The notes beneath the pieces are model-generated. The model did not search any database and was not told where the DNA came from. It saw nothing but the letters and a program-made list of their open reading frames with translations. Made by a program: the position numbers and the translations under genes. From the IMG/VR virus record IMGVR_UViG_3300037264_007062, positions 1 through 54,603 of that record: a stretch of DNA of 54,603 nucleotides. One strand, given 5' to 3'. The stretch comes from a virus (Duplodnaviria > Caudoviricetes). Of the stretch, positions 43,821 to 46,585 are shown piece after piece. How positions within the stretch are numbered: position 1 is the stretch's first letter; each line of letters opens with the position of its first letter.

Positions 43821-44054
43821 ATGAAGTTTAAACGACTATACATAAAAAACTTTATGTCTGTGGGTGAAGAATCTGTCGAAATCAATTTTGAAGATTTTGA
43901 TGATATTGTATTAATCAAAGGATATAATCTTGATGAAAACAACAAAGAGGATTCCAACGGCAGTGGAAAGTGCGTAGACAGTACTACAAAAATAGAAATA
44001 TTATATGACAGAGATGAAATAATAAAATTAATAGGATTCGACCCTTTCAATTAG
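43821..44054 (+). CDS. gp46/SbcC N-extein (50 aa) plus split-intein IntN (27 aa)
   Basis: MKFKRLYIKNFMSVG...SNGSGK then CVDSTTKIEI (intein block A, Cys codon at 43971). Confidence 0.88.
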   Translation: MKFKRLYIKNFMSVGEESVEINFEDFDDIVLIKGYNLDENNKEDSNGSGKCVDSTTKIEILYDRDEIIKLIGFDPFN

Positions 44055-44134
44055 TTAAAGAAAAAAGAGTTAAATAATAAATTTAAAATTATTTGGATTA
44101 ATGATTGGAAAAATTATATACAGGAAATTTCAAA

Positions 44135-46585
44135 ATGTTTAAAAAATATTCAATAACATCAATTGGAAACATCGTAGAACTATTTGAAAAATATCCTGTT
44201 CTCAAATCAAAAATTGAAGTTAAATCTGATACTGGATTCTTTAAAATTCTGGAAGCACGGAAAACATATTATGGAAAATATTATACTATTTACGATAAGA
44301 ACAAAAACAGTATAATTTGTTCTCCAGATCATATCTTTATTGACGATAATCTACAAGAAATAAAAGCCAAAAAGTTGACGATAGAATCTAAAATATCATC
44401 AACTGATGGATTCAGATCAGTATCAGACATCGAAATATCAGAAGATTCAAGATCTTTATATGATATAGAAGTTGATGAAGTACATCGATATTATACAAAT
44501 GGATTTTTGTCTCATAATTCACTTTTGATAGAATCGATAGTATTTGCTGTTTTCGGTCGCACTATCAGAGGCCAGTCGGTAGATAAGATTATCAATAAAC
44601 AAAATAAAAAAGAATTATATGTAGAACTTGAAATTGACAATCTTAAGATAATTCGCAAAAGAAAACCAAATTCCTTAGAATTATACAGTGAAGATAAAGG
44701 CAATGAAACCCTGTCGACTGTGTCTTTAACGCAAAAACTGATTGAAGATAAAATCGGCGTTAATTATGAAACATTCATAAACATATTATGTTATGGCCAG
44801 CATAATATGTTTGATTTTCTTTCGGCCTCCGCGCCGGCGAAGAGAGCTATTATTGAAAATCTTTTAAGTCTAGAAGACTATAACAAATATGAATCTGTCG
44901 CCAGAAAAACATCTAATACTCTTAAAAAAGAAATGGCGAGATTATCAGGAAAATATGAAACAATACTAGAGAATGAATCTAAAAACAAAGAACAATTAGA
45001 TTCTTATAAGAAAAAGTTTCTAGATTTCGTCTCAGAAAAAAGACTTGAAATTGAAAAATTAGAATCTAAAATTGAAAAATTCAAAAACATTGACATTGAT
45101 GAAGAACTTAAAAAATTTGAAGAATCAGAACAAAAATTAAAAAAAATCAATAAAATCAATGAAGAATATCAAAACACAGTTCATGATTTAGATAAAACAA
45201 ACAAAAGATTCAAAGAATATGAATTAAAATTCAATAATTTTCAGCATGACATTCAAAAAGAACTCAAATATTTAAAAATTAAAATCGAAAATATATTGTC
45301 GATAGATATCGATCTTCGTTTAGAAGAATGGAATATATATGAAAAAAAATTAAAAGATTTAACTAAAGCTCAACAAGAACTAAACGAAATCAGTTTGAAT
45401 ATTTCGAATATTGAAAAAAATCTTATACCTATAATTAATGAAATAAAACAAATTGATGAAAACCTATCCAAGATAAAAAATATTGAATTAGGCGTAAGAT
45501 GTCCTTCATGTCTGCAAATTGTTGATCCAGATAACGCAAAAAATACTGAAAAAGATTTTTCTGAAATGCGAGAAGAATTATCCGAACAACTTTCTGATCC
45601 TCAAAAAGAACTTCAAAAATTTTATGATCTTAAAAAACAACTCTCATCAAAACATAAAGAATTGAGCAAAATAAAAGAACCTGAAATCAAAAAAGAAGTT
45701 TTAATCAGACACCAGTCTGATAAAGAGCATTTAAACAGCCAACTCAAAGAGAAAGAAGAAAGATTAAACGAAAATCCGTATGATGATATCATCAACAAAA
45801 TAAATGTCGAAATTCTTCAGCTTTCAGAAAAAATAGATAATATTAAAAAAGAAATCGACAAAGAACAATCGGAATTTAACAAATATGCAGATTTCAAAAA
45901 ATCAAAATTTGACAAAGAAGAATTAATAAAGTTTAAAGCTCAAAAAGATCACACAAATGAATTATTAGAATCTAAAAAATCAGAATTAAAAAACAACACT
46001 TATGAAGATGTAATTAAAAATATTGAAAAAGAAATAAAAGAAATTTCCTCAAACATCAAATCTCTAAAAAAAGAGATGCAAACAAAAGAAGATCTGACTC
46101 CGTATTTAGATTTTTGGATTCATGGATTTAGTGACACCGGAATTAAAAGTTATATTATCAATCAGATCATTCCGGCTTTAAACTCCCAAGTCAATTATTG
46201 GCTGCAATTTCTTTATAATAATCGCTTAGAAATTGAATTCGACCAATATCTAGACGCCAAAATATTCTCGTATGATGAAGAATTTGATTACAAAGGATCA
46301 TCCGGAGGAGAAAAGAGAAGAATCGATCTAGCTATATTATTATCATTCGCTCACATTATGAGACTGAGTTCAAAAGCTGATAACAATATTTTATTTCTTG
46401 ATGAGAGTACGGAATCATTAGACAAGAACGGAGTAGAGTGCATGTACCAGACAATATTAGAACTTTCAAGAGAAAGAACTGTCTTTGTTATTACCCACCA
46501 TCCATATTTACTTGAAAAATTCGAAAACAGACAAAAATTGATTGTAATAAAAGAAAACAGATTCTCTAAGTTTCACACAGAATAA
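44135..46585 (+). CDS. Split-intein IntC (128 aa) plus gp46/SbcC C-extein
   Basis: AGGA RBS; CSPDH block B; YDIEV...YYTNGFLSHN/S; CPSC zinc hook; SGGEKRR; LFLDE; ITHH. Confidence 0.9.
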   Translation: MFKKYSITSIGNIVELFEKYPVLKSKIEVKSDTGFFKILEARKTYYGKYYTIYDKNKNSIICSPDHIFIDDNLQEIKAKKLTIESKISSTDGFRSVSDIEISEDSRSLYDIEVDEVHRYYTNGFLSHNSLLIESIVFAVFGRTIRGQSVDKIINKQNKKELYVELEIDNLKIIRKRKPNSLELYSEDKGNETLSTVSLTQKLIEDKIGVNYETFINILCYGQHNMFDFLSASAPAKRAIIENLLSLEDYNKYESVARKTSNTLKKEMARLSGKYETILENESKNKEQLDSYKKKFLDFVSEKRLEIEKLESKIEKFKNIDIDEELKKFEESEQKLKKINKINEEYQNTVHDLDKTNKRFKEYELKFNNFQHDIQKELKYLKIKIENILSIDIDLRLEEWNIYEKKLKDLTKAQQELNEISLNISNIEKNLIPIINEIKQIDENLSKIKNIELGVRCPSCLQIVDPDNAKNTEKDFSEMREELSEQLSDPQKELQKFYDLKKQLSSKHKELSKIKEPEIKKEVLIRHQSDKEHLNSQLKEKEERLNENPYDDIINKINVEILQLSEKIDNIKKEIDKEQSEFNKYADFKKSKFDKEELIKFKAQKDHTNELLESKKSELKNNTYEDVIKNIEKEIKEISSNIKSLKKEMQTKEDLTPYLDFWIHGFSDTGIKSYIINQIIPALNSQVNYWLQFLYNNRLEIEFDQYLDAKIFSYDEEFDYKGSSGGEKRRIDLAILLSFAHIMRLSSKADNNILFLDESTESLDKNGVECMYQTILELSRERTVFVITHHPYLLEKFENRQKLIVIKENRFSKFHTE

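Follow-up and report, generated by a model that had tools for sequence, protein, structure and literature searches.

The stretch of DNA analyzed here, referred to below as the window, is the 54,603-nt (54.6-kb) viral record IMGVR_UViG_3300037264_007062 (Duplodnaviria; Caudoviricetes), for which completeness is estimated at 11%. Its gp47-gp46 operon carries a gene for an SbcC-type ATPase that is divided between two adjacent open reading frames (ORFs), ORF1 and ORF2, and each of them contains one part of what is very probably a naturally split intein. The features of this region are given below, where IntN and IntC stand for the N- and C-terminal parts of the intein and the exteins are the flanking parts of the host protein.

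42755 to 43813, plus strand: gp47/SbcD-like nuclease gene (Pfam Metallophos, E = 8.6e-08, and Metallophos_2), directly 5' of ORF1, its stop 7 nt before ORF1
43821 to 43970, plus strand: N-extein of gp46/SbcC, 50 amino acids (aa), ending SNGSGK, the first part of Walker A
43971 to 44054, plus strand: IntN, 27 aa from Cys1 (CVDSTTKIEILYDRDEIIKLIGFDPFN), and TAG stop
44055 to 44134: spacer, 80 nt, AT-rich, without an endonuclease gene
44122 to 44125, plus strand: AGGA, a putative Shine-Dalgarno-like motif 9 nt before the IntC ATG, from sequence reading only
44135 to 44518, plus strand: IntC, 128 aa, with SPDH at residues 63 to 66, LYDIEV (Asp110), and SHN at residues 126 to 128
44519 to 46585, plus strand: C-extein of gp46/SbcC, 688 aa from Ser+1, which completes GK-S, and stop at 46583 to 46585

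ORF1 (43821 to 44054; 77 aa) begins with MKFKRLYIKNFMSVG, and its residues 1 to 50 close with EDSNGSGK. Directly after this Walker A lysine comes Cys51, encoded by TGC at 43971, and the frame is closed by TAG at 44052 to 44054. ORF2 has its own ATG at 44135 and lies in a different frame (43821 mod 3 = 0; 44135 mod 3 = 2); both ORFs are intact, with 77 and 816 codons, respectively. The IntC terminates in FLSHN (AAT at 44516 to 44518), followed by the serine codon at 44519 to 44521 and then by LLIESIVFAVFG; the C-extein start after this serine reads LLIESIVFAVFGRT. The spacer has a G+C content of 15% versus 32% for the window, has stops in each of the three frames, and at 80 nt is too small to hold an endonuclease-sized ORF, so none lies between the halves. 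A first-pass annotation, made by a model from the sequence, had described a 50-aa extein running to NGSGK, 27 aa from the cysteine at 43971 to TAG, an 80-nt gap lacking an endonuclease gene, a change of frame, AGGA and ATG at 44135, and a 128-aa part of ORF2 with SPDH and a terminal SHN at 44518 before serine. Every one of these elements was recovered at those coordinates. The Logan re-assembly of the probable source run was identical over 43600 to 44800 (0 differences, 0 gaps, mean depth of 14.3), which speaks against an assembler slip; the re-assembled contig comes from the probable source sample itself and hence is not an independent sample.

Which gene has been divided? Searches against PHROG 77 ("SbcC-like subunit") matched ORF1 residues 1 to 50 to profile positions 296 to 333 (E = 2.5e-07) and also matched ORF2 residues 92 to 813 (E = 1.6e-73), and the two halves cover consecutive parts of the profile. 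The Pfam SbcC_Walker_B match of ORF2 fell below threshold. ORF2 carries a zinc hook (CPSC, residues 456 to 459), the signature motif (SSGGE, 722 to 726), Walker B (LFLDE, 753 to 757, with D756 and E757), and the His switch (H788), and the columns of all four are invariant in our alignment A2. The features that define membership in the SbcC/gp46/Rad50 group are thus all present: Walker A (GSGK/S upon joining), hook, signature, Walker B, His switch, and an adjoining gp47. The long coiled coil was visible only in the model of a sister protein, P0049. The order gp47 then gp46 was also found in the related contigs L052, L053, L030, and L005.

The exact insertion site was revealed by relatives in which the gene is free of an intein. 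The closest relative found, P0008 (728 aa), is intein-free and 54% identical to ORF2 over 702 aa. Residues 12 to 50 of ORF1 align to P0008 residues 1 to 39 with 63% identity, and the alignment resumes with ORF2 residue 129 at P0008 residue 40, with no residue lost or doubled at the joint. Across the site, P0008 reads NGAGK/SLICEAIIFAIFG (NGAGK/SL). The intein-free L053, a close relative of the gene in L052, likewise reads NGAGK/SL, the intein-free L005 reads NGSGK/SS and is colinear across the site, and a 595-kb uncultured phage in GenBank has an uninterrupted gene with NGSGK/SSIPEIIVYGLFG. Because ORF1 and ORF2 are colinear with intein-free homologues at K/S, the insert lies exactly between the Walker A lysine and serine. 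The proposal of the first-pass annotation that an intein fractures gp46/SbcC at its Walker A motif is therefore borne out by the junction with P0008, L053, and L005. The lysine and the serine of a P-loop both belong to one functional ATP-binding motif. Here they are encoded on separate polypeptides, and the ATPase would therefore need ligation.

Several other searches and comparisons concerned the host gene. A word-index search with ORF1 returned ORF1 itself as the sole candidate (1/1), and no relative was confirmed when viral contigs were scanned with ORF2, P0009, and P0035. Matches of ORF2 in Herelleviridae (Twort, iF6, and SWEP1) that extended into the IntC by tblastn were rejected as spurious, as SbcC is contiguous there (NGVGKS, NGSGKS, and NGAGKS); small ORFs upstream of the Herelleviridae SbcC genes are unrelated. 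All 24 viral-contig relatives (L006 to L029) of another IntC-first protein, P0028, are intein-free (PKNFGGK/ST...), which indicates that the intein is sporadic in that SbcC lineage too; in these relatives, the SbcC head is preceded by an N-terminal extension of ∼120 aa. Fusions with the neighboring gene also occur. In L038 (390 to 1736), the SbcD nuclease and the SbcC N-extein share one frame with no stop between them, and in L034 an open frame of 1,018 codons (1648 to 4704, identical to P0066) holds the whole SbcD-SbcC-intein-SbcC chain. P0060 (1,211 aa) looks like the arrangement in L034.

We then considered the insert itself. As a single sequence, the IntC had its best Protein Data Bank (PDB) match in CatC (E = 1.3e-4), followed by gp41-1 (1.6e-4) and, weakly, VidaL (0.026). 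A profile of four IntCs matched gp41-1 (5.4e-12), VidaL (8.5e-10), CatC (8e-9), and NrdJ-1 (1e-6), and the PDB matches of this profile were limited to inteins or intein-like domains. The catalytic positions were conserved. Cys1, the block A nucleophile, is invariant in 5/5 aligned N-halves. Among 31 aligned SbcC-type IntCs, G34, T44, H66, L108, D110, N122, S126, H127, and N128 are invariant, as is Ser+1 (S129), and S63 and P64 of SPDH are conserved in at least 90%. We take SPDH with H66 to be block B, (T/S)xxH, D110 to belong to block F, and SHN to be block G.

The same split was observed in L052, an independent metagenome contig whose extein and IntC are 42% and 44% identical to those of the window, respectively. 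L052 has gp47, a 78-aa N-half, a 175-nt AT-rich spacer, and an IntC-first ORF. Its N-half reads SNGSGK/CVDKNTQIEIEYDLKEIIDLIGFDPFK up to the stop, ending in GFDPFK, and its IntN is identical to that of the window at 19 of 27 positions, with the stop after the same residue. The first-pass annotation had proposed to look for the same split in metagenomes and had held that decay of the locus in relatives, combined with a failure to form spliced product, would refute the idea. In L052, the stop and the start of the IntC lie where they do in the window, and the catalytic residues are all retained.

A search of viral contigs with the IntC profile yielded 22 loci. At 20 of them, the IntC-like ORF begins right after a stop; the exceptions are L034, which is contiguous, and L051, which holds another, truncated intein. 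By eye, and without a profile check, the exteins of these loci were assigned as 5 SbcC-like, 14 DnaB/gp41-helicase-like, and 2 terminase-like. An N-half ending in GK and continuing C(V/L/I)..(T/S).. was found upstream at 15/22 loci by pattern and, for L038, by ORF listing.

Scanning 1.84 billion cluster representatives gave 2,809 matches at E ≤ 1e-3, 708 of them at E ≤ 1e-10. The counts that follow cover the best 150 of the 2,809 (clusters at 50% identity), with exteins sorted by phmmer against reference exteins and 10 of these checked with Pfam. We counted 87 SbcC-like, 53 terminase, and 4 helicase-like representatives, with 4 too short and 2 unclassified; this list favors SbcC, since SbcC inteins were the source of the query profile. 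The IntC is N-terminal in 67 of the SbcC-like representatives and internal, that is, contiguous, in 20; the corresponding numbers for terminase are 39 and 14. Among the 67 IntC-first SbcC-like representatives, 65 start with Met and 64 begin between −3 and +2 of the first model position. At +1, 81 of the 87 SbcC-type representatives have Ser and 6 have Thr. The first-pass annotation had called short-IntN types rare; with 67 of the best 150 representatives being SbcC-like and IntC first, this arrangement is not rare in nature. Judged from these sequences, the intein is a member of an abundant metagenomic family.

Where in the intein fold does the split lie? In P0049, a contiguous mini-intein sister, the sequence runs GK/CVDKDTQINIKYDSKEIIELIGINPFS-DNK-STVGNIVNLFEKYP (PFS-DNK-STVGNIV), so that three residues (DNK) replace the stop, the spacer, and MFKKYSI of the window. 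The AlphaFold model of P0049 (32-row alignment; mean predicted local distance difference test [pLDDT] of 80.8) shows a strand at residues 58 to 63, a helix at 66 to 72, a loop at 73 to 80, a strand at 81 to 83, and a helix at 84 to 93, with lower confidence at residues 71 to 80 (mean pLDDT of 64). On the basis of the helix at 66 to 72 and the loop at 73 to 80 in this model, the split is predicted to fall within a loop that comes after beta2 and the small helix next to it. Natural short IntNs are 15 to 37 aa long (PMC13014065), and the window pair, with an IntN of 27 aa versus an IntC of 128 aa, falls inside this range.

Among characterized inteins, the split directly follows beta2 in VidaL and PolB16 (S1) and follows alpha1 in AceL-TerL and GOS-TerL (S2) (PMC13014065). 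Positions 1 to 126 of the IntC profile aligned to VidaL chain residues 20 to 141, with the first position, a Met, on chain Met 20. For CatC, the alignment began no earlier than IntC position 24-25 (chain residue 15), and the Cat split, at the S2 site after alpha1 (PMC13014065), is thus located further downstream than that of the window. Because the IntC start aligns with that of VidaL and not with that of CatC, the split point is VidaL-like rather than AceL-TerL-like. It fits neither S1 nor S2 cleanly: the IntC start is of the S1 type, yet the IntN has a predicted extra helix after beta2. VidaL (6VGV/6VGW) also resembles the window in its short IntN and its dependence on cysteine (PMC13014065), and its C-fragment starts at the same structural place. 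Its IntN is 16 aa long (PMC13014065) versus 27 aa in the window, where a beta1-beta2 part of equal length is extended by an 11-residue tail for which the model of the contiguous sister P0049 predicts a helix. VidaL resembles the SbcC-type inteins in its C terminus, GIVSH(N)/S (with A at the bracketed position of the crystal construct), compared to FLSHN-S in the window, with Ser+1 common to both.

The group of AceL-TerL, GOS-TerL, and Cat (6DSL) shares with the window an atypical natural split, an IntN of 25 to 37 aa, a phage or metagenome source, and a P-loop ATPase host (PMC11766414, PMC13014065), but that host is the terminase large subunit, whereas here it is SbcC. PolB16 OarG is likewise an atypical natural split from a metagenome, with a very short IntN of 15 aa; it uses Ser1/Ser+1 chemistry in a PolB polymerase (PMC10189870), whereas the window has Cys1/Ser+1 in SbcC, and no match by the name of PolB16 OarG was present among the PDB sequence matches of the IntC. 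The inteins gp41-1 and NrdJ-1 (Dassa et al. 2009, PMC2677866) are related in sequence to that of the window and occur in phage DNA-metabolism genes in metagenomes. Their fractured loci carry an endonuclease gene (PMC2677866), whereas the window has only 80 nt between the halves; L030, L038, and the helicase-type loci share this fractured-gene layout, with a free-standing ORF between the halves.

By tblastn, the window IntC matched 287 of 50,697 GenBank phage records at 31 to 38% identity. The matches in cultured phages (for example, Klebsiella Menlow, Salmonella Mooltan, Dickeya LIMEstone1, and Salicola SCTP-2) are contiguous inteins of the terminase large subunit. Among the 75 matches listed (30 best and 45 spread, with some overlap) of the 287 records, the annotated features were terminase, intein, HINT, or hypothetical only, with no SbcC host, and the annotated ones were contiguous precursors.

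Can the two halves come together? We predicted the complex of ORF1 residues 38 to 77 with ORF2 residues 1 to 142 by using custom alignments. The interface score (ipSAE) was 0.90 versus 0.04 for the best of three controls; the calibration mark for this score was passed by 58/80 solved complexes and by 2/110 mismatched pairs. The runs shared at least 85% of contacts, and the partner pLDDT was 76. In the predicted interface, IntN residues 51 to 76 contact the N-terminal strand of the IntC and its blocks B, F, and G. The two halves may thus associate, as judged from this model.

On these grounds, we propose the following route. ORF1 would yield the 50-aa N-extein with the 27-aa IntN, and ORF2, started independently at ATG 44135, would yield the 128-aa IntC with the 688-aa C-extein. 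The beta-hairpin of the IntN and its helical tail would dock into the nearly complete HINT fold of the IntC. Cys1 would form a thioester, Ser+1 would attack it, and Asn128 would cyclize, releasing a 738-aa SbcC with an intact P-loop. The first-pass reading of the locus as an atypically split, short-IntN intein is supported by the junction, L052, the catalytic residues, the PDB matches, and the predicted complex. We conclude, with high confidence, that the window locus is a naturally split class 1 intein of the atypical short-IntN kind, placed at the Walker A K/S of a gp46/SbcC/Rad50-type ATPase in a large uncultured tailed phage.

Several points weigh against this conclusion. Expression of both halves and the trans-splicing chemistry are inferred. 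At the read level, support comes from a contig of the probable source sample and hence is not independent; the weak Shine-Dalgarno-like motif has no clear counterpart in L052, which has AGAGA there. The Pfam intein matches of ORF2 are below threshold (PT-HINT, 17.0 versus 27.7 bits; Intein_splicing, 15.5 versus 35.8 bits). Because split-intein complexes have already been solved, the pass of the predicted complex may reflect likeness to known structures and not binding. A closely related contiguous form exists in P0049: in a FastTree analysis of 85 rows (3 truncated rows of the 87 SbcC-type rows were dropped), the window, P0009, and P0049 form a clade with a support of 99. This intein tree is poorly resolved, with 6/82 inner branches well supported, and split and contiguous forms are mixed on it, with 18 changes, no fewer than for shuffled labels, of which supported branches force at least 5. 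Given P0049 and this mixing, a recent, not yet purged break is possible at any single locus.

One potential alternative explanation is decay, in which an indel broke a gp46 mini-intein that no longer splices, leaving a dead gp46 or fragments that are at most associated non-covalently. The contiguous sister P0049, the mixture of forms on the tree, the sub-threshold Pfam matches, and a spacer that resembles the debris of a lost gene are all consistent with such a history. A dead locus, however, would not be expected to look as L052 does, with stop position, IntC start, and catalytic residues retained at only 42 to 44% identity, and both ORFs of the window (77 and 816 codons) are intact. The Met start in 65/67 SbcC-type IntC-first representatives, 64/67 of them at offsets of −3 to +2, also argues against decay, as does the practically universal conservation of SbcC and SbcD in jumbo phages (PMC7824862). 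In addition, an unexcised 155-aa intein in the P-loop would be expected to block ATP binding. We consider decay improbable.

Errors of assembly or sequencing could also have produced the stop and the frame change, in which case the true phage would have a contiguous mini-intein like that of P0049 or L034. The locus was seen in one metagenomic contig at the modest depth of 14.3, and contiguous relatives are known. Since the spacer has stops in three frames and the ORF frames differ, no single indel restores one frame; moreover, the sequence from a second assembler is identical, and the same architecture recurs in the independent L052 and in many IntC-first proteins. An artifact is, on this evidence, very unlikely. 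Finally, ribosomes might bypass the spacer as in T4 gene 60, hopping from the last IntN codon, AAT, to the in-frame AAT at 44126 to 44128 and producing one chain that splices in cis. A stop does lie right after the take-off codon, the matching codon lies in the ORF2 frame three codons before the ATG, and L052 has a matching pair (AAA/AAA), both codons being very common in AT-rich DNA. The take-off region is without a stem-loop, however (minimum free energy of −7.7 kcal/mol, z = +1.89; 198/200 shuffles fold at least as well). In L030 and L038, the halves are separated by ORFs of 337 and 407 codons (>1 kb), too far for a hop, and the Met that is conserved throughout the family at the beginning of the IntC points to a separate start of translation. 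Because the spacer RNA shows no structure, we reject bypassing, which we regard as scarcely credible.

If the intein is split in nature, how did the split arise? We compared the spacers of the window and L052 by local alignment, since a global MAFFT alignment misaligned them. The last ∼45 nt before the IntC ATG (window 44088 to 44134; L052 2275 to 2318) are conserved, including an exact ATTATTTGGAT and TATATA, with an alignment score of 42 compared to 27.2 ± 4.2 for shuffles, the best of which also scored 42. This element may act as a signal for translation or transcription, or it may be what is left of a lost gene. A scan of the window and L052 regions for sigma-70-type promoters found sites no more numerous than in shuffles and none at the spacer element that was conserved between the two. 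The terminator scan found none in the window region and two in L052, both on the minus strand. Across the window, Rfam at gathering thresholds gave 0 families and ARAGORN gave 0 tRNAs. Opposite the N-half gene, both loci have an antisense ORF starting with MKGSNPI (window 43814 to 44050, minus strand, 78 aa; L052 1981 to 2139, minus strand, 52 aa), which is most simply a by-product of sense-strand conservation.

The frame that follows the TAG of ORF1 is open for 33 codons (44055 to 44156, plus strand), ends in KFKIIWINDWKNYIQEISKCLKNIQ before its stop, and extends 22 nt into the IntC gene; the L052 peptide at the matching place is EIIWITSWLKYIENL. The window peptide resembles the C-terminal (V/I)(I/V)WE.DW of ORFs found between the intein halves in L035, L036, L040, L042, L047, and L048. 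With a hidden Markov model of these six C termini, it ranked 2 among 2,926 six-frame peptides (E = 1.1), and its mean pairwise score was reached by 1/1,000 shuffles. The L052 peptide was not significant (rank 109, E = 37; 66/1,000 shuffles reached its score). These sequence comparisons offer a weak lead that the spacer may be the scar of a lost free-standing endonuclease gene, which we keep as a lead and not as a finding because the statistics are modest.

Relatives with a full-length ORF between the halves bear on the same question. Such ORFs occur between the SbcC halves of L030 (337 aa) and L038 (407 aa); they are homologues of each other (E = 8e-24), and each terminates 28 to 29 nt inside the IntC gene. 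At helicase-type loci, ORFs of 242 to 314 codons between the halves end in GYDVL(I/V)(I/V)WE.(D/E)(W/Y) and overlap the IntC start by 4 to 17 nt; in L043, the ORF that L042 holds intact is reduced to a remnant of 65 codons. The intervening ORFs of L030 and L040 have phrog_22677 in common. The ORF of L040 matched phrog_13076 ("endonuclease") and, below threshold, DUF559, and the nuclease label comes from L040 alone; with Pfam, the L030 ORF gave nothing, the L038 ORF gave an irrelevant weak match, and the L040 ORF gave sub-threshold matches only. Fractured genes have been described as carrying Vsr-like endonucleases (PMC2677866), with which the L040 matches agree. A free-standing endonuclease gene between the halves, the hallmark of fractured genes, is thus absent from the window, and a putative one is present in L030, L038, and the helicase-type loci. 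The helicase-type loci (L035 to L037 and L040 to L050) have an IntN of ∼55 to 70 aa after the Cys with a conserved tail, W.NP..KY....ELYGWQ, and most carry an endonuclease-like ORF of 240 to 315 codons between the halves. For L041, the N-half itself accounts for the long open frame upstream of the IntC.

In the likely history, a free-standing endonuclease gene would have invaded a contiguous mini-intein and interrupted it at the loop behind its first small helix; this gene would persist in relatives and would since have been lost in the window. More tentatively, and at somewhat less than an even chance, the window may represent the end stage of a gene-fracture cycle. All stages of such a cycle would be visible among SbcC relatives: an empty site (P0008 and L053), a contiguous mini-intein (P0049 and L034), an intein that a free-standing endonuclease-like gene has broken in the loop behind beta2 and the small helix (L030 and L038), and a split intein with a scar (the window and L052). 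Short-IntN split sites would then arise by invasion of an N-terminal loop and not of the canonical site for endonuclease insertion, and the last codons of the invader would survive as carriers of the IntC translation start.

Other genes of the window include a tail sheath gene and, at 47307 to 52445 on the plus strand, a 1,712-aa class II (B12-dependent) ribonucleotide reductase with two Pfam Intein_splicing stretches. The reductase gene apparently holds two contiguous inteins, which would give the phage at least three inteins in 10 kb. Elsewhere, we noted two paralogues carrying Pfam DUF7487, of 526 aa (9943 to 11523, plus strand) and 569 aa (12516 to 14225, minus strand), an ankyrin-repeat protein (372 to 1991), and a class II glutamine amidotransferase-like gene (1988 to 3367, minus strand).

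A full-text search found no published report of a split intein in SbcC/gp46, although the VidaL and Cat surveys may already list SbcC hosts. In its accessible text, the study of Dassa et al. (2009; PMC2677866) reports the hosts gp41 helicase, IMPDH, DnaE, NrdA, NrdJ, DNA ligase, and terminase, does not name SbcC, and mentions a fractured SbcD-like gene without an intein. As far as our literature search reached, SbcC as a split-intein host is new to print. The characterized natural split inteins with a short IntN are few, namely, AceL-TerL, GOS-TerL, VidaL, and PolB16 (PMC10189870, PMC11766414, PMC13014065), and the window locus adds a Cys1/Ser+1 example in a host gene for which our literature search found no earlier report.

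When synthetic peptides are to be attached to proteins, natural split inteins whose N-fragment is short are the preferred tools. The diverged relatives, which number at least 67 clusters (50% identity) in the best 150 of 2,809 matches, could be mined for orthogonal pairs, and the relatives as a whole constitute a natural series in which the origin of split inteins can be tested. If the gene-fracture cycle is true, SbcC Walker A inteins, possibly including the VidaL lineage, would constitute a large reservoir in nature of split inteins with a short IntN. For phage biology, the locus suggests that an ATPase described as nearly universal in large phages can become obligatorily dependent on protein trans-splicing.

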